DNA from: a phage
DNA length: 46,431 nt
Assembly: GCA_021146965.1 (NCBI GenBank)
Contig: GCA_021146965.1_4847.1
Strand: one strand, 5' to 3'
Shown: piece after piece, positions 1,541-35,260 of the stretch
Layout: every line of letters begins with the position of its first letter
How positions within the stretch are numbered: the stretch's first letter is position 1
Notes under the pieces: generated by a model
The model's input: the letters and a program-made list of their open reading frames with translations, nothing else
Told to the model about the DNA's origin: nothing
The model's database searches: none
Program-made: the position numbers and the translations under genes

Positions 1541-1616
1541 GGTGGACACGGACGAATTTGAACCTTCAATCAGCCGATTATTAGTCGGTTGCTTTAACCA
1601 ATTAAGCTACGCGTCC
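1540..1616 (-). tRNA. tRNA-like gene (77 nt, encoded CCA; anticodon loop CUAAUAA, anticodon reads AAU, identity uncertain)
   Basis: minus-strand sequence GGACGCG-TA-GCTT-AATTGGTTA-AAGC-A-ACCGA-CTAATAA-TCGGC-TGATT-GAAGG-TTCAAAT-TCGTC-CGTGTCC-A-CCA folds as cloverleaf: 7-bp acceptor stem (one G-U), 4-bp D stem with GG in D loop, T8/A9, U33, T-loop TTCAAAT; one mismatch each in anticodon and T stems. Confidence 0.45.
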
Positions 1617-3585: not shown

Positions 3586-4323
3586 ATGAGCAATCGCACG
3601 CCACTAACAGAAATCGGGGAGATGCGCATCTCGCTTTCTGACAGGAGTTTTTTCTTTAAGCCATCATTCCGTGCCATGAATGAAATTGGCACGCCAAAAG
3701 AAATCGTCGAGGTATACGCTAAGCTCAATGGCATTGATTATATTGCGCCGTTGCAGCACGTCGAATACCTGCCATTTGGCGCGCAGATGCAGGTTATGAA
3801 GACCATCAGCAAACCTGTGTATGGTCGCCATGTACTGAGCGCAGCCTATATCGTCATGCAATCATGCTGTGAAGATGATATTTCTGTGCTGATTGGTGGA
3901 TGGAAGCCAACACCGCGCGGTGTGCGATACGTGCCGGGAGTAATGCCAATTGGCGGCACTGGACATTTGCCAGGTGGAACAGGTGGAATTATTGAGATTG
4001 CCCGCTCATTAATGGAGCACGGCATTATTGGCAAATCACCACTCAAAGTGCCTGAGCGTCTGGAAGAGCAGGGTAAGAAAACCACAAATGAGTTTCATGC
4101 GTCGCAATACATCATCTCAGCGCGCACGCATTTCGACATGACGCGTGATGAGGCCGAAAACCTGTCCATGACAGAGTTTCAGATGATGATTAAAAATAAA
4201 TATCCAGAGCCGAAAGGGTTAACGAAAGAAGAGCGCGCGGCAGAGTACGATCAGGCTAAAGCAGACCGTGAGCGCATGAAGGCACTGGCTGAACGCAAAG
4301 CGAAAAAAGCGAGGAATACATAA
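3586..4323 (+). CDS. putative tail assembly chaperone
   Basis: ORF immediately upstream of tape measure gene (1-nt overlap TAATG); start moved from 3577 to ATG 3586 for AGGA spacing; basic C-terminus; function assigned mainly by position. Confidence 0.45.
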   Translation: MSNRTPLTEIGEMRISLSDRSFFFKPSFRAMNEIGTPKEIVEVYAKLNGIDYIAPLQHVEYLPFGAQMQVMKTISKPVYGRHVLSAAYIVMQSCCEDDISVLIGGWKPTPRGVRYVPGVMPIGGTGHLPGGTGGIIEIARSLMEHGIIGKSPLKVPERLEEQGKKTTNEFHASQYIISARTHFDMTRDEAENLSMTEFQMMIKNKYPEPKGLTKEERAAEYDQAKADRERMKALAERKAKKARNT

Positions 4324-6697
4324 TGGCTGAAGAAGTCGGCGGAATTGTCTATGAAGTCGGGATGGATGTTAAAGGCCTGAAGGCTGGCGCGACAACAGCC
4401 AATAAGACTTTAGGTGACCTTGAATCATCAACCAACAAAACCACAAGCGCCCTTGGCAAGCTGGATAAAAACGCCAGAAATGCTGGCAGCGGAATGAAAA
4501 ATGCTGGCGGCGCAGCTTCAGGGCTAAAAACGCAGATGACGGCTCTTGCTGGCGCAATATCCGTGTCACTGATTATCGAATGGGGAAAGCGATTCCTTGA
4601 TGTTGCCGATAACATGACACAACTTCAGGCAAGGATTGCTCGCTTGTCAACTGATGCGAAAACCGCGAACGAAACATTCAGTACACTGGCAAATATCGCC
4701 TCGACCACTGGCGCAAGTCTCAGCGACACCACGAAGCTGTGGGAAACATTGACGTCATCACTGAAAGAGGCTGGCGCGACAAATGCGCAGGTTCTTAACC
4801 TTACTGACACTCTGCAAAAGATAGGACGAATCGGCGGGTCATCAACAGAAGAAATGGCGAACGCCCTGCGTCAGTTCGGTCAGTCAATTGCTTCTGGCAC
4901 AATCCGCGCCGAAGAATTTAACTCCATCCTTGAACAGATGCCTGAACTTGCGCGCCAGATTGCAGCTGGACTTGGCATTTCAATGGGCGAACTTCGCGCC
5001 AGAATGCTTGACGGAAAGCTGACGGCAGAAGATGCACTGAATGCCATTCAGGACAGGACAAGCATCGTCAATGCTGAGTTTGAAAAACTTCCTCGCACAA
5101 TGGATCAGGCCGTTGGTTCTCTTGAAGTTTCATTCTCCAAACTTGTGGTTGCCGTTAACGATGCCACTGGCGCATCAAAAACAGCAGTAGAGATTATCGA
5201 CCAGCTGGCAAAATACATTGATTTCCTCGGCGACAAATCAACCAGCACGAGCGACAAGATTCTATCTCTCGCCACGGTTATCTCGAAGCTAAACCCAGGC
5301 GCATGGGCACAAATGGGGGTTGATGCGCTTTTCGGTGATGATGATATTGAGAAGCAAAAACAATATAACGATCAAGTCGAGCGATTCGTTAAGGCTTCAA
5401 AAGAAGGTTACGAGCAGACAAAGAAACAGGCTGAAGCAACAAAACACCTGAAGATTGCACAAGCACCAACCAAAGACAAGAAAGGCAAAGGAAAGGGCAA
5501 AAGCGCCGAAGAACGGCAAGCTGAGTCAGTTGCTGAAAAGCTGGAGAAATTACGCCAGCAAACCATGCTTAATGCCACATCTACCAGCGAACTCTCCCGC
5601 GATCAAGCCATCCTCAACGCGCAGCAATCGCTTGGCAAGGCTGCCACTCAGGAACAAATAAAACTGGCTGGCGAGTACGCTGCGAAGATTTGGGACCAGA
5701 GAAACGCGCTGAAGGAGCAGGCAGCAGCTGAGAAAGAAAAGCAGCGCGTAGAAAAATCATATCAGGGGTTGCGCGCCATTGCGTCACCAACATCTGGCAT
5801 TGATAGTGAATACCAGCAACGCATGGCTGACCTTGACGCCTACGCCGCAGCATATCCACAAAAAATCACGGAGATTGAGCAGACTCGCGCAGCAATTGAG
5901 GCACAGTACCGCCAGCAGAGAATGGACGCCATGTGGGCTGAATGGCAGCAGCAAAGCCTCGGGGCGCAATTGTTCGGCACGGCGCTTGATTCAGCGATGA
6001 GTACAGCATCAAACAGCATCACTGGATTGCTCACAGGCACAATGAGCGTTCAGGATGCAATGCGCAGCCTCGGCTCTACGGTGCTGAATTCTCTGGTAAA
6101 CAGCTTTGTTGAAATGGGCGTTCAGTGGGTTAAATCCGCCGTTATGGGGCAGACTGCGCAGGTTGCGGCAACAGCTACCACCACAGCGGCGCAAACGGCA
6201 GGACTCGCAACCACAACAGCAGCATCAACTGCAGCGGCAGCAACCACTACCGCAGCATGGACTCCAGCGGCAATCGTAGCATCAATCGGTTCATTCGGCG
6301 GGGCGGCTGCAATTGGTGTAGGTGCTGTTCTCGGGGCACTGGCAATGGGTATCGCTGGCAAGCGAAAAAATGGCGGCTCAGTTAGCGCCGGAAGTATGTA
6401 CGAAGTGGGCGAAAATGGCTTGCCTGAAATATTCCAGGCGTCCAACGGTCGCCAGTATATGATTCCCGGCAACGATGGCTCAGTTATCAGCAACAAAGAC
6501 ATTACCGGAAGTGGCAGTGGCGTTGTGGTTTATAATAACGTGATAAATAACAGCTCTGCTCAGGTTAGCAGCAGTGCCAGAGATAATGGTGATGGCAGTG
6601 TGACGATTGAGACTATCGTTAGTGATATCGAAAACAACGGCCCTATCGGGCAAAGCATTGGAAGAAACTACTCAGCAAGCCGGAGGGCAACTGAATA

Positions 6698-31950: not shown

Positions 31951-32094
31951 TCACTTAATATACTCAACAATCTCAACTTCACGCATCTGCACCAGGCCAA
32001 ATGGTGCAACCACCTTACCGCACGGACGGATTTTGATTTGCTCAAGGTTGAACACTCCGCAGCGTCCGTTTTCTTTGAATTTGACCATTACCAT
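31951..32094 (-). CDS. small hypothetical protein (47 aa)
   Basis: ATG ORF MVMVKFKENGRCGVFNLEQIKIRPCGK...; below track cut-off. Confidence 0.3.
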   Translation of the reverse strand: MVMVKFKENGRCGVFNLEQIKIRPCGKVVAPFGLVQMREVEIVEYIK

Positions 32095-32096
32095 AA

Positions 32097-32267
32097 TTAA
32101 TACCCGTTTTTCTTGGCTAATTGTTGCGCACGTTTCTTCGTGTACCCACAGGCCATCAGGCGCTTGACCTCGTTGCGGCGCCTTGCGAAATGGTACTCAC
32201 GAGAATTAAATGCACATTCGTTGCTAAAGTTAACATTACGTGGATTCATCTTCATCACCTCATTCAT
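32097..32267 (-). CDS. small basic hypothetical protein (56 aa)
   Basis: ORF MNEVMKMNPRNV...KRAQQLAKKNGY; internal ATG 32249 has better RBS spacing. Confidence 0.3.
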   Translation of the reverse strand: MNEVMKMNPRNVNFSNECAFNSREYHFARRRNEVKRLMACGYTKKRAQQLAKKNGY

Positions 32268-32353
32268 CACTTGATGTAGATACTATGCACCACCAACCAA
32301 TCTACGTCAACACCATTGTGATAGAATTAATCATTATTTGAACTGGAGGCAGA
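32268..32353. promoter_or_regulatory. divergent promoter/operator region with inverted motif pair
   Basis: TTGATGTAGAT (32271-32281) and inverted CAATCTACGTCAACA (32298-32312) between divergent operons; GGAGG RBS at 32345-32349. Confidence 0.45.
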
Positions 32354-32632
32354 ATGAAACTATCGCAACGAGGCGTGGAGACGTTTGGAATTACCGATGC
32401 CGTGAATATATCGCCTTACATCACTACCGAGACAACGCAGAATCAGTTCGACGCGCTGGCAAGTCTTGCCACCGACATTGGCATTTACGCGTTCCGTAAA
32501 TCAACGCTTCTGAAGAAGCACAACCTCCGCTGCTTCTCATGTGCTGTTGCGCATTTCATCGCGTGGGGCGAGAAGACTGGCGACAAAGCAAAACGCAAAG
32601 CTGAAAAAGAGGTTTACTGGTATGGCTATTAG
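32354..32632 (+). CDS. GH24 (P22 gp19-type) lysozyme-like protein lacking the catalytic N-terminal core (probable gene remnant)
   Basis: 92 aa; C-terminal part TTQNQFDALASLATDIGIYAFRKSTLLKKHNL matches the conserved Q.Q.DAL.SL..N.G..AF..ST.L..LN segment of P22-type lysozymes, but the E/D/T catalytic region and ~55 aa are absent; 3' end overlaps endolysin start. Confidence 0.5.
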   Translation: MKLSQRGVETFGITDAVNISPYITTETTQNQFDALASLATDIGIYAFRKSTLLKKHNLRCFSCAVAHFIAWGEKTGDKAKRKAEKEVYWYGY

Positions 32633-33086
32633 TAAAAACATGAAGGCGTTTCTGGATATGCTGGCGTACAGCGAGGGCACTGATAACGGGCGGCAGAAAA
32701 CCAATAATCATGGTTATGATGTGATTGTTGGCGGCTCACTGTTTACCGACTATTCCGACCACCCGCGCAAGCTGATTAGCCTGCCAAGGCTGGGCATTAA
32801 ATCCACCGCCGCCGGTCGCTATCAGGTACTGGCTAAGTTTTATGATGCGTACAAAAAGCAATTGCGTTTACCGGACTTCTCCCCCGCATCGCAGGACGCC
32901 ATTGCAATGCAGCTAATCCGTGAATGCAAGGCCACCGCTGATATTGAGGCTGGTCGCATTGCTGATGCCATCCATAAATGCCGCTCCCGCTGGGCCTCAT
33001 TGCCGGGCGCTGGGTATGGTCAGCATGAGCAGAAGCTGGATAAGCTGATTCAGGTATACAAAGAGGCTGGCGGAGCTGTGGCATGA
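32622..33086 (+). CDS. endolysin, lambda R-type lytic transglycosylase
   Basis: KAFLDMLAYSEGTDNGRQKTNNHGYDVIVGG.LFTDYSDHPRK...AGRYQ...WASLPGAGYGQ.E.K...L...YKEAGG aligns along its length with lambda R as recalled. Confidence 0.85.
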   Translation: MAISKNMKAFLDMLAYSEGTDNGRQKTNNHGYDVIVGGSLFTDYSDHPRKLISLPRLGIKSTAAGRYQVLAKFYDAYKKQLRLPDFSPASQDAIAMQLIRECKATADIEAGRIADAIHKCRSRWASLPGAGYGQHEQKLDKLIQVYKEAGGAVA

Positions 33087-33322
33087 AAAAGCTAAGCAAC
33101 TGGCTGCTCGCCGCGTGGATTTCATTCTGCTCGCTGTTACAACTATGGCCTGATGCAATGATACATGTGTGGGTAATGATGCCGGATGACCTGAAAGCAG
33201 CGCTACCGCTAATCGTGGTCAAAGGTGTGAGTTACTCAATTATGCTTGTCGGCATCCTCGGCAAAATGCACGGCATGAGGAAGGAAAACCGGAGGCTGCG
33301 CAATGATGTCGATTCTCGTTAA
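33083..33322 (+). CDS. putative holin (two-TMD small membrane protein)
   Basis: 79 aa, two hydrophobic helices and charged C-terminus (RKENRRLRNDVDSR); ATGA-coupled to endolysin; unusual position downstream of endolysin. Confidence 0.4.
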   Translation: MKKLSNWLLAAWISFCSLLQLWPDAMIHVWVMMPDDLKAALPLIVVKGVSYSIMLVGILGKMHGMRKENRRLRNDVDSR

Positions 33323-33794
33323 ATACTGGCGACCGCTGGCAATTATTATAATTGTTGCCGCTGGCGCGTTGTGGGTGGCAAATAAAGTGTCCGGTTATGG
33401 CGAGCAACAATATGCCGCCGGATACGCGAAGGCAGTCGCAGAACAGAAGGCCGCAGACGAACAAGAGGAGCAACGACGCAATGCAGAACTGCAAAAGATT
33501 CAGGCCGACGCACAGCAAAGGATTGATGCTGCGCGCAATGATGCTGTTAATGCTGCCGCTAAGTCTGGCAGGTTGCAGCAACAACTCACCAGTATCCGCA
33601 AGCAGCTCGTCGGATATTCCACCGCTGAGTCCATTGGCAACCCAGCCGCAGAAACCGGAGTTTTGCTTGCAGACGTGCTCCGCAAATCTGTCGAAAGAAA
33701 TCAACAGCTGGCAGATTACGCTGACAGGGGGAGAGAGGCAGGATTGACGTGTGAGGCACAGTATAATTCTCTGCGTAATAAAAAAGCCCCGTGA
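33303..33794 (+). CDS. Rz-like inner-membrane spanin (i-spanin)
   Basis: N-terminal TM helix (WRPLAIIIIVAAGALWVA) followed by coiled-coil periplasmic domain; contains embedded +1-frame lipoprotein ORF. Confidence 0.7.
   Translation: MMSILVKYWRPLAIIIIVAAGALWVANKVSGYGEQQYAAGYAKAVAEQKAADEQEEQRRNAELQKIQADAQQRIDAARNDAVNAAAKSGRLQQQLTSIRKQLVGYSTAESIGNPAAETGVLLADVLRKSVERNQQLADYADRGREAGLTCEAQYNSLRNKKAP
33526..33747 (+). CDS. Rz1-like outer-membrane lipoprotein spanin (o-spanin), embedded in Rz
   Basis: MLRAMMLLMLPLSLAGC lipobox signal peptide, Pro-rich mature region, entirely inside Rz in another frame (lambda-type embedded architecture). Confidence 0.65.
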   Translation: MLRAMMLLMLPLSLAGCSNNSPVSASSSSDIPPLSPLATQPQKPEFCLQTCSANLSKEINSWQITLTGGERQD

Positions 33795-33808
33795 TGGGGC
33801 TTTGTTTT
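33783..33808. terminator. bidirectional rho-independent terminator
   Basis: AAGCCCC-gtgat-GGGGCTTTGTTTT hairpin between convergent Rz (+) and 33829..34206 (-). Confidence 0.65.
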
Positions 33809-33828
33809 AACCTTCTCCGTAGCCAATG

Positions 33829-34471: not shown

Positions 34472-34773
34472 TATTTAATCTCTCCGTTCAGTTCATTAAC
34501 AATTAACGTTGCATAGCCAGCAATATCTTTCCAGCTGTCATCATAAGTCGGGTCGCCATTCAGAATGCGCCCAATCTTGTGCTGAATCATGTCGAGCGCC
34601 TCGCGTTGACTTGGTGTGAGATTGCGCCAGCCATCTACCTTGCGCATCACATCTTTCAACTCCTGCATAATTTCAGCGCCGTCTTTGAATTTACCGTATC
34701 GACTACCGCGTTCGGTGATGAGTCGCTCTGTTGCGTCAGTATGGCGCTTATCGCCCGTGATTTGTGAACTCAT
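34471..34773 (-). CDS. hypothetical protein
   Basis: 100-aa ORF, ATG start. Confidence 0.45.
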   Translation of the reverse strand: MSSQITGDKRHTDATERLITERGSRYGKFKDGAEIMQELKDVMRKVDGWRNLTPSQREALDMIQHKIGRILNGDPTYDDSWKDIAGYATLIVNELNGEIK

Positions 34774-35260
34774 TGTGATGCATTCTCCTGAATTCTTTTA
34801 TTTTTGCTTCTGCTTCTCTTATGTCGGAAAAGTAACCAACTGTGAATCTTTTGCCATTTACTCCAACTCTTGCATGCCACTTGTTGTGCGATGAACTCCA
34901 GTTAACCCCCTTGATACCGCTAGTGTTGTTTTTGTTCATTGCTTTGTTGTGGCTATTCTCAAATTTGCTGGCCTCCCTTAAATTGCACGCCCTGTTGTCA
35001 TTGCGAATGCCATTAATGTGGTCAATCATTTCACTTGCTGGCGCGCCATGAATGCATATCCATGCCAATCTGTGAGCAAGAAAAGCCCTACCGCAAAGAA
35101 TTATTTGCACATATCCATCTGGCTTTAAGTAGCCAGCCACACTCCCTTTTTCTGCAATCCTATTCCTTGTCTTTAGCCATTTAAATTCCCCAGTTAGTGG
35201 ATTGTAGTAAAGGTAACTCAATATAAACTCCCTACTCGGCTCATCTCTCCTATGCCTCAT
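34748..35260 (-). CDS. HNH homing endonuclease with AP2 domain (paralog 3 of 4)
   Basis: IDHINGIRNDNRACNLREA plus AP2-like SGIKGVNWSSSHNKWHARVGVNGKRFTVGYF. Confidence 0.8.
   Translation of the reverse strand: MRHRRDEPSREFILSYLYYNPLTGEFKWLKTRNRIAEKGSVAGYLKPDGYVQIILCGRAFLAHRLAWICIHGAPASEMIDHINGIRNDNRACNLREASKFENSHNKAMNKNNTSGIKGVNWSSSHNKWHARVGVNGKRFTVGYFSDIREAEAKIKEFRRMHHNEFTNHGR

Follow-up and report, generated by a model that had tools for sequence, protein, structure and literature searches.

The stretch of DNA analysed here (46,431 nucleotides (nt), referred to throughout as the window) represents nearly the whole 46-kb genome of an enterobacterial siphophage of the Skate/Vi II-E1 type, and its lysis region is 99% identical to that of Salmonella phage vB_SenS_ST1UNAM (ST1UNAM) and approximately 90% identical to those of more than 100 phages of Salmonella, E. 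coli, and Shigella. The lysis operon lies on the plus strand, downstream of a portal gene and a Mu-F-like head gene, and is arranged as a promoter, a gene for a protein of 92 amino acids (aa), a lambda R-type endolysin gene (R), a holin gene, the inner- and outer-membrane spanin (i- and o-spanin) genes, and a terminator. The first of these genes (32354..32632, plus strand, ATG start) is the subject of this work. Based on Pfam and Protein Data Bank (PDB) searches, syntenic alignments, an AlphaFold2 (AF2) model, Foldseek comparisons, and the ratio of nonsynonymous to synonymous substitution rates (dN/dS, or omega), it is a GH24 gene that lacks the N-lobe of the enzyme (ΔGH24), that is, a pseudo-endolysin. 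Its Shine-Dalgarno sequence, GGAGG (plus strand, 32345..32349, 4 nt before the ATG), is conserved in relatives and common to the intact GH24 genes of phages CF-SP1, VLCpiS13d, and pIS4-A. The initial annotation of this DNA correctly described the 92-aa open reading frame (ORF) and its strong GGAGG ribosome-binding site (RBS), but took it for a decayed GH24 lysozyme gene, fused head-to-tail with an intact R-type gene and caught in the course of being replaced by it.

The similarity of the 92-aa protein to lysozymes is limited to one portion of the GH24 domain. Residues 19-78 match the Pfam family PF00959 (Phage_lysozyme) with E=1.6e-10 and 41.8 bits (cut-off 22.3 bits), and they do so over profile positions 55-114 of 125 only, compared to positions 1-125 (E=1.8e-45) for the intact enzyme of CF-SP1. 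When the PDB was searched with phmmer, residues 19-74 paired with residues 71-126 of P22 lysozyme (2anv) and with the corresponding region of six further GH24 endolysins, at E-values down to 1.8e-9, which agrees with the earlier suggestion that a P22 gp19-type C-terminal segment is kept. Compared to the syntenic homologues of 145-146 aa, the protein is missing 50 residues, with the lobe that carries the catalytic Glu/Asp/Thr, plus the 5-residue loop GKxxxGL. A loss of the catalytic region and of about 55 residues had been correctly anticipated (50 + 5 residues), but it had been attributed to truncation of the N-terminus, whereas the deletion is in-frame and internal, and the promoter, the RBS, the N-terminal helix, and the C-terminal lobe are all retained. 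Judging from these alignments, the 92-aa gene descends from the GH24 (P22 gp19/T4 lysozyme-type) endolysin whose gene sister phages carry at this position. The canonical GH24 motif, as in T4 lysozyme (T4L), is Glu-x8-Asp/Cys-x5-Thr, and this triad is not found in the 92-aa protein, where the deletion took away the stretch containing the Asp, the Thr, and the beta-hairpin. All lineages do retain an acidic residue at position 15, which alignments can place opposite the catalytic Glu at the end of helix A. The note attached to this gene in the Skate record ('has Ex5Dx8T motif; endolysin_glycosidase') refers to a spacing that is wrong for GH24, and E9 and T24 are not conserved in the more distant lineages L083, P0052, and P0054 described below. 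The protein has no signal peptide or membrane segment (maximum 19-residue hydropathy 0.83). A split lysozyme made in two pieces was considered and rejected, as no N-lobe is present elsewhere in the window: a tblastn search of its whole length with the N-lobes of five GH24 enzymes returned noise only, the best match away from the fragment's own 5' end having E = 0.04. As for the window copy itself, it has Tyr at codon 45 (32486-32488), like its consensus and the near-identical ST1UNAM, where most of the others checked have Asp (IGIDAF), and its Asn18 and Ala70 are likewise minority states in the family.

The AF2 model, obtained from an alignment of 36 homologues, is compact, with six helices and no strands (pLDDT 82, pTM 0.73), and its best Foldseek matches are GH24 endolysins, with query-normalised template modelling (TM) scores of 0.65-0.76. 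The two-lobe fold with a cleft was not found, in that the structural alignments cover the C-lobe and helix A only. In the case of SpmX (6h9d, query-normalised TM 0.75-0.76), the alignment spans 142-143 columns of a 147-148-residue target, and therefore both ends of the domain are matched while the small lobe is skipped. The engineered minimal T4 lysozymes 4u15 and 4u16 and the truncated T4L 5i14 are also among the matches and, going by their names, we take all three to be N-lobe-deleted T4L constructs. According to a study of T4 lysozyme, the N-terminal helix is, in terms of structure, a portion of the C-terminal subdomain, and this subdomain in isolation (residues 1-12 plus 75-164) folds autonomously (bioRxiv 10.1101/353649). 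In the model, the natural deletion leaves the same kind of unit, made of the N-terminal helix and the C-terminal lobe. Most of the residues that are invariant in the GH24 C-lobe are kept in the 92-aa protein, while D, S, or A stands in place of the GH24-invariant Asn (N41), and constraint is relaxed at the first Arg of the RR motif. A clade-specific H-N-x-x-C-[FY]-x-C motif (residues 56-67; 32519-32554), invariant as H-N-x-x-C-F-x-C in all fragment lineages, also occurs in the syntenic intact GH24 enzymes, and is absent from P22 gp19 and other GH24 enzymes; H56, C60, and C63 are invariant, and beyond the fragments only the local intact enzymes have them. This pattern could reflect a disulfide or a metal site. 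A His/Cys metal site in particular was tried and set aside, given that the fourth ligand, H67, is Gln in the other lineages and that the motif is also present in the intact enzymes.

Directly downstream, R (32622..33086, plus strand) encodes an intact endolysin of 154 aa belonging to the lytic transglycosylase family. Its residues 3-153 align to lambda lysozyme (PDB 3d3d/1am7, E ~7e-62), the catalytic-Glu motif reads AYSEGT in place of the AWSEGT of lambda, and the protein is assigned to phrog_90 endolysin, so that the initial description of a full-length, lambda R-like, non-homologous endolysin at this position holds. This protein is presumably the working muralytic enzyme. It has zero matches in the current Pfam-A, and the old PF00959.8 match in the 2008 Vi II-E1 record lies on the gene equivalent to R; because Pfam-A misses R, pipelines that use Pfam only will overlook the real endolysin and flag only the dead fragment. 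The Shine-Dalgarno sequence of R, AAAGAGG (32606..32612, plus strand), is located inside the 3' end of the 92-aa ORF, and an RBS is annotated at the equivalent site in the Skate record. The two ORFs do overlap, as had been noted, although by 11 nt including the stop codon (32622-32632) and not by 10, and because their reading frames differ they overlap and are not fused, contrary to the head-to-tail fusion first proposed. The overlap is 14 nt in L083 and takes the form ATGA in L090, and it is probable, given this layout, that the 92-aa ORF and R are translationally coupled. In 34 unique relatives, approximately 90 nt at the junction of the two ORFs (32600-32690), from the 3' end of the first into the 5' end of R, are near-invariant at synonymous sites, which is more than the RBS and the overlap would explain. 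An RNA hairpin that would occlude the Shine-Dalgarno sequence at the junction was evaluated and discarded, as the fold is no better than that of shuffled sequences (z = 0.18). In most lineages, the frame of the downstream endolysin is open for 36-68 codons upstream of its ATG (window 32514-32621; L083, L095, L096, and L090). A fusion of fragment and R through programmed +1 frameshifting was nonetheless judged improbable, for stop codons are found 7 and 10 codons upstream in two of 37 loci and the openness is within chance. In the record of Flyfo siphovirus Tbat1_6, a 211-aa 'lysozyme' is annotated from this upstream-open R frame, probably by chance or over-annotation.

A tblastn search of the phage collection found 140 GenBank records with a copy of the 92-aa gene at 80% protein identity or more, cleanly separated from the next-best matches (about 50% identity), which are full-length enzymes. 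Relatives with an intact GH24 gene at this locus, whose existence had been predicted, were in fact found: an intact gene of 145-146 aa lies at the exact locus, and R is missing, in Salmonella phage CF-SP1, E. coli phage TanjaMuster_Bas81 (Bas81), Klebsiella phage VLCpiS13d, Aeromonas phage pIS4-A, and others, 3' of the same divergent promoter and directly 5' of the same holin and spanin genes. This arrangement occurs in at least 12 Skate-type phages and in dozens of Klebsiella Rouf-type phages; the grouping into Skatevirinae and Roufvirinae is a proposal made in PMC11769527. The first 8-15 codons or so (MKLSQRG...) are common to the 92-aa gene and its intact homologues, and the promoter, the RBS, and the first ~26 nt are common to the 92-aa gene and the GH24 genes of CF-SP1, VLCpiS13d, and pIS4-A; because these elements match, we believe that the 92-aa gene arose in situ. 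The C-lobe of the 92-aa protein is 47-53% identical to those of the syntenic intact enzymes. The holins are 99% identical between CF-SP1, where they accompany an intact GH24, and Skate, where they accompany ΔGH24 and R, and in the Rouf-type background those of pIS4-A and L083 are 91% identical. Between genomes with different modules, blastn homology ends either ~26 nt into the first gene or just before its ATG, and restarts exactly at the ATG of the holin. With holins 91-99% identical and homology broken at these two points, it follows that GH24 on one side and ΔGH24 plus endolysin on the other are alternative cassettes swapped by recombination, extending from the promoter/5' codons to the start of the holin. 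An intermediate with both an intact GH24 and a second endolysin was not seen in the phages sampled. Co-adaptation of the holin was also considered, and dismissed, because holins this similar beside the two alleles mean that there is no allele-specific holin.

The 50-residue and 5-residue deletions recur in identical register in three types of fragment: that of the window and Skate, that of L083, P0052, and Flyfo, and that of P0054. The second type, a 93-aa form with 52-57% identity to the window protein, is represented by L083, L095/P0052, and Flyfo siphovirus Tbat1_6, lies in a Rouf-type genomic background, and is followed by R. The third, P0054, is a 98-aa form with 36% identity to the window protein, located in the 45-kb phage contig L090 (4001-5071; ENA ERZ27235435 k119_44397), where the fragment is followed by an endolysin with GH108 and PG_binding_3 domains and then by a DUF7940 holin. 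Contig L091, which comes from an independent sample, shows no difference from L090 in the 440 nt that were compared (locus positions 3901-4340), 43 nt of them past the stop codon of the fragment, up to the end of the L091 contig. Because the L090 fragment precedes a GH108 enzyme and not R, the remnant has outlived a swap of the enzyme that accompanies it, and because the register does not differ among three lineages whose identity to the window protein is only 36-57%, the deletion is best explained as a single old event. To judge by these lineages, the deletion is ancient and fixed, and the idea of a replacement in progress is not supported, as the remnant survived an exchange of R for GH108. 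Across the same divergence, fragment length stays within 92-98 codons. In the loci compared, moreover, every fragment is accompanied by an endolysin outside GH24, and none occurs in addition to an intact GH24 gene. Among metagenomic proteins there are also short GH24-like forms of 80-110 aa (P0067, L092:120-425; P0167, L093:3001-3333; and P0081), in which a helix-A-like N-terminus runs straight into the C-lobe, some with the same change of N to D or S (DIGID, MSIG), and phrog_7910 (96 positions) aligns in the same register as these proteins. The catalytic lobe may have been lost on more than one occasion.

Selection was analysed in 37 loci, of which 33 are on IMG/VR contigs, three come from GenBank phages, and one is that of the window, by pooled Nei-Gojobori estimates with bootstrap confidence intervals (CI). 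All 37 have an intact, undisrupted ORF of 92 codons that begins with ATG, and dN/dS is 0.12 (CI 0.07-0.19), where the corresponding values are 0.13 (holin), 0.28 (i-spanin), and 0.035 (R). Over codons 19-82, omega drops to 0.08 with a synonymous rate (dS) of 0.40, while in the last 10 codons, which contain the RBS and start of R, dS is only 0.065, indicating constraint at the nucleotide level in a block that is nearly invariant. At least 161 substitution events yielded zero stop codons, where 5% of random changes would make one. In a search of 5.8 billion proteins, this form was consistently 92 aa long, in approximately 30 clusters with more than 1,400 member sequences. Constraint therefore acts on the protein, and is about as strong as on the holin. 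These values are not those of a 'decayed' gene, and they favour the other suggestion of the initial annotation, that the remnant was retained for another role. Whether the C-lobe evolves faster in the fragment than in intact enzymes was addressed by Tajima relative-rate tests, where the excess of 1.5-2x was non-significant (p < 0.05 in 1 of 16 tests).

A putative extended -10 element, TGaTAGAAT (32319..32327, plus strand), read directly from the sequence, may be the promoter of the lysis operon; the block from -39 to -1 before the 92-aa ORF is near-invariant in the same 34 unique relatives, and L090 carries a comparable element, TGgTAGAAT. The promoter scan, which needs a -35 hexamer, picked up only a leftward promoter-like site in the divergent promoter region (TTGACG/CATAGT, 32310-32282, minus strand) and not the extended -10. 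Downstream of R, the 79-aa holin (33083..33322, plus strand; DUF7940, Pfam PF25612, phrog_13249), whose Skate counterpart is annotated as a class II holin, has a start that overlaps the stop codon of R, and is followed by an Rz-like i-spanin of 163 aa (33303..33794, plus strand; DUF2514, Pfam PF10721, E=1e-29, phrog_312). Translation reveals an embedded 88-aa o-spanin with the lipobox LSLAGC (33481..33747, plus strand), in a position that agrees with the embedded spanin annotated in Skate and Vi II-E1. A bidirectional intrinsic terminator, GCCCC-GTGA-GGGGC flanked on either side by T runs (33783..33809), identified by a terminator scan and inspection of the sequence, closes the operon, and the Skate record has a terminator at the equivalent place. 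Around the operon, a 57-aa ORF (32097-32270, minus strand) that faces the lysis promoter is present in only 4 of 40 related loci and appears to be a small variable insert beside the divergent promoter, while the neighbouring 47-aa ORF (31951-32094; phrog_21280) is present in 35 of the 40. Just 3' of the operon lies a 170-aa homing-endonuclease-like ORF with HNH_3 and AP2 domains (34748-35260, minus strand), annotated likewise in ST1UNAM, and the stretch between the terminator and this ORF varies among relatives. Among the ORFs at the left end of the window there is a tRNA-Ile gene with anticodon AAT (1543-1616, minus strand; ARAGORN, and Rfam RF00005 with 56 bits).

The interpretation that we lean towards, and hold to be reasonably probable, is that the 92-aa protein is a catalytically dead, non-enzymatic pseudo-endolysin, maintained by selection and made alongside the real endolysin, and that it acts, as a guess, as a non-catalytic accessory to lysis. 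One ancient in-frame deletion removed the small catalytic lobe, with Glu/Asp/Thr and the beta-hairpin, and a second one the 5-residue loop of the cleft, to leave a unit composed of the N-terminal helix and the helical C-terminal lobe. Cleavage of the cell wall would then have passed to the downstream enzyme, R in this phage and GH108 in one distant lineage, while the remnant would still be transcribed from the ancestral promoter as the first cistron, with its strong RBS and its overlap with the start of the next gene. The protein so produced would be expected to fold, to have no catalytic activity, and to do something useful. It might bind or regulate the endolysin, the cell wall, or the holin/spanin machinery, a guess in which our confidence is low, and in so doing might continue a further task, one that the intact enzyme also carries out through its C-lobe. 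As the fragment is found only with a non-GH24 endolysin and is absent where GH24 is intact, the simplest model would be one in which the C-lobe has a second function that R or GH108 cannot supply. The more specific proposal of a new lysis-cassette component, that is, a non-catalytic subunit or regulator of the soluble endolysin that follows (R or GH108), or of the holin/spanin, in which this second, as yet unrecognised function of the C-lobe persists, is put forward tentatively, and we regard it as doubtful. If it were true, the GH24 endolysins of these phages would have two functions, and the pair of genes would illustrate subfunctionalisation through the loss of a domain.

Several of our data do not sit well with a conserved accessory role. 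The residues at the junction left by the deletion (8-18) are relaxed, with an omega of 0.36, and net charge is not conserved, as the isoelectric point (pI) is 9.2 for the window protein and 5.4 for that of the GH108-linked lineage. The replacement of N41 and the deletion of the GKxxxGL loop make peptidoglycan binding of the type seen in the enzyme less likely, and because phages with an intact GH24 use virtually the same holin and spanins in the absence of the fragment, these partners do not need the fragment as such. Lastly, the intact form has two exceptions and no more, the metagenomic variants P0029 and P0033, each with an internal double frameshift. They enter the +1 frame for approximately 13 and 30 codons and then return, with the 92-aa length kept; compensated indels or assembly errors are both possible and, if the frameshifts are real, segment 72-85 would be dispensable.

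Other explanations should be weighed against the same evidence. The ORF could serve exclusively as a cis-acting leader, translated through for coupling to the endolysin, with the peptide as a by-product. A stop/start overlap in every lineage (11 nt, 14 nt in L083, ATGA in L090), the nucleotide-level constraint on the last 10 codons, and the fact that the fragment is kept whichever endolysin comes next are all compatible with such a function. A leader, however, needs an open frame only, and would not account for the low omega at a normal dS over codons 19-82, for a length that stays steady through deep divergence, or for the invariance of core and GH24-signature residues; furthermore, R has its own GAGG RBS, and no significant RNA structure occludes it. 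We therefore consider a pure leader unlikely. A functional protein might also have a job outside lysis, for example by acting on a host or defence factor in the cytoplasm, and be located in this operon by ancestry. Lysozymes have been co-opted in this way before, as T7 lysozyme binds RNA polymerase (RNAP), and the muramidase domain of SpmX is named a localisation factor by NCBIfam (NF051871). The 92-aa protein is under selection although the holin and spanins work with or without it, it has neither a signal peptide nor a membrane segment, and the apparent extended -10 could permit transcription by host RNAP before late times. Nevertheless, the constant association of the fragment with non-GH24 endolysins, and never with an intact GH24, ties it to the lysis-enzyme module, and profile comparisons with Pfam, PHROGs, and NCBIfam revealed no similarity to anti-defence or regulatory families, which makes a role unrelated to lysis, in our opinion, improbable.

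Far less credible is a pseudogene in mid-replacement, still translated but drifting neutrally to loss. The missing catalytic lobe, the relaxed junction, and the frameshifted variants P0029 and P0033 would be expected of such a gene, but a CI for omega that excludes 1, 37 loci free of stops and frameshifts in spite of the substitutions accumulated, and an architecture that persists in distant lineages and through a swap of the neighbouring enzyme would not. We give even less credence to the view implied by databases, that the 92-aa protein is an active muramidase and that these phages therefore have two endolysins. The acidic residue at position 15 and the many GH24 signature residues retained in the C-lobe could be cited in its favour. 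This view would nonetheless have to accommodate an 'E-x5-D-x8-T' motif with reversed spacing and unconserved E9 and T24, the absence of the beta-hairpin lobe, which forms half of the substrate cleft, from a model that has no strands, the deletion of the cleft loop, and the replacement of the GH24-invariant Asn. In the Skate genome announcement, moreover, the transglycosylase alone is named as the endolysin (PMC6606912).

These considerations have direct implications for annotation. Approximately 140 GenBank/RefSeq genomes list this gene as "endolysin" or "lysozyme" (hence "endolysin x2"), which is misleading, and several of these phages are proposed for biocontrol or therapy; the family is already in PHROGs as phrog_10457 with the label "endolysin", the same label used by RefSeq, and no published discussion of the gene was found in the searchable full-text literature. 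Lacking the catalytic machinery, the 92-aa gene is unsuited to cloning as an enzybiotic. More generally, the locus offers a clean natural case in which an enzyme gene that lost one structural lobe came to encode a conserved, presumably non-enzymatic protein, the lobe left being the one that folding studies showed can stand alone. If the proposed role in lysis is correct, the protein would add an accessory not described before to the otherwise well-mapped scheme of lysis by holin, endolysin, and spanins in Gram-negative phages. The BASEL collection contains near-isogenic natural comparators, with ΔGH24 and R in Bas77-79 and an intact GH24 in Bas81, and the role of the 92-aa gene is therefore directly testable.

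Among known systems, the P22 gp19/T4-type GH24 endolysins, the closest being those of CF-SP1, TanjaMuster_Bas81, VLCpiS13d, and pIS4-A, are homologous to the 92-aa protein and share its locus, promoter, RBS, and first codons, but the 92-aa protein is without the catalytic lobe and cleft loop, has the Asn replaced and a second, unrelated endolysin next to it, and is no normal muramidase. Lambda R is a full-length homologue of ORF 32622-33086, with the catalytic Glu motif kept, and is soluble, with no signal or signal-arrest-release (SAR) segment; in lambda, however, R stands alone after the holin, while in the window it lies ahead of the holin and begins inside the 3' end of a GH24 remnant. Multi-subunit endolysins are known from phages of Gram-positive hosts, namely PlyC (PlyCA and PlyCB) and enzymes such as CD27L/CTP1L and Lys170, to which a non-catalytic C-terminal domain made as a separate product is added. 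The likeness, which is one of analogy, is that a small protein with no catalytic activity is encoded together with a catalytic one and possibly works with it; the small protein described here, in contrast, would be the dead remnant of a catalytic domain and not a cell-wall-binding domain, and the host is Gram-negative, a setting for which we know of no arrangement of the PlyC type. SpmX of the Caulobacterales, which gives a weak NCBIfam match (NF051871) and the structure with the best TM score (6h9d), is an example of a GH24 domain co-opted for a non-lytic role, but both lobes of its domain are still present, it is a membrane protein of bacteria, and it has no close relationship to the 92-aa protein. 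In terms of architecture, a parallel is the C-terminal subdomain of T4L, or the 'minimal T4L' (mT4L) of G protein-coupled receptor (GPCR) crystallography, which has the same combination of helix and C-lobe with the small lobe excised; those are laboratory constructs that play no biological role, however, whereas the 92-aa protein is natural and has been kept by selection.

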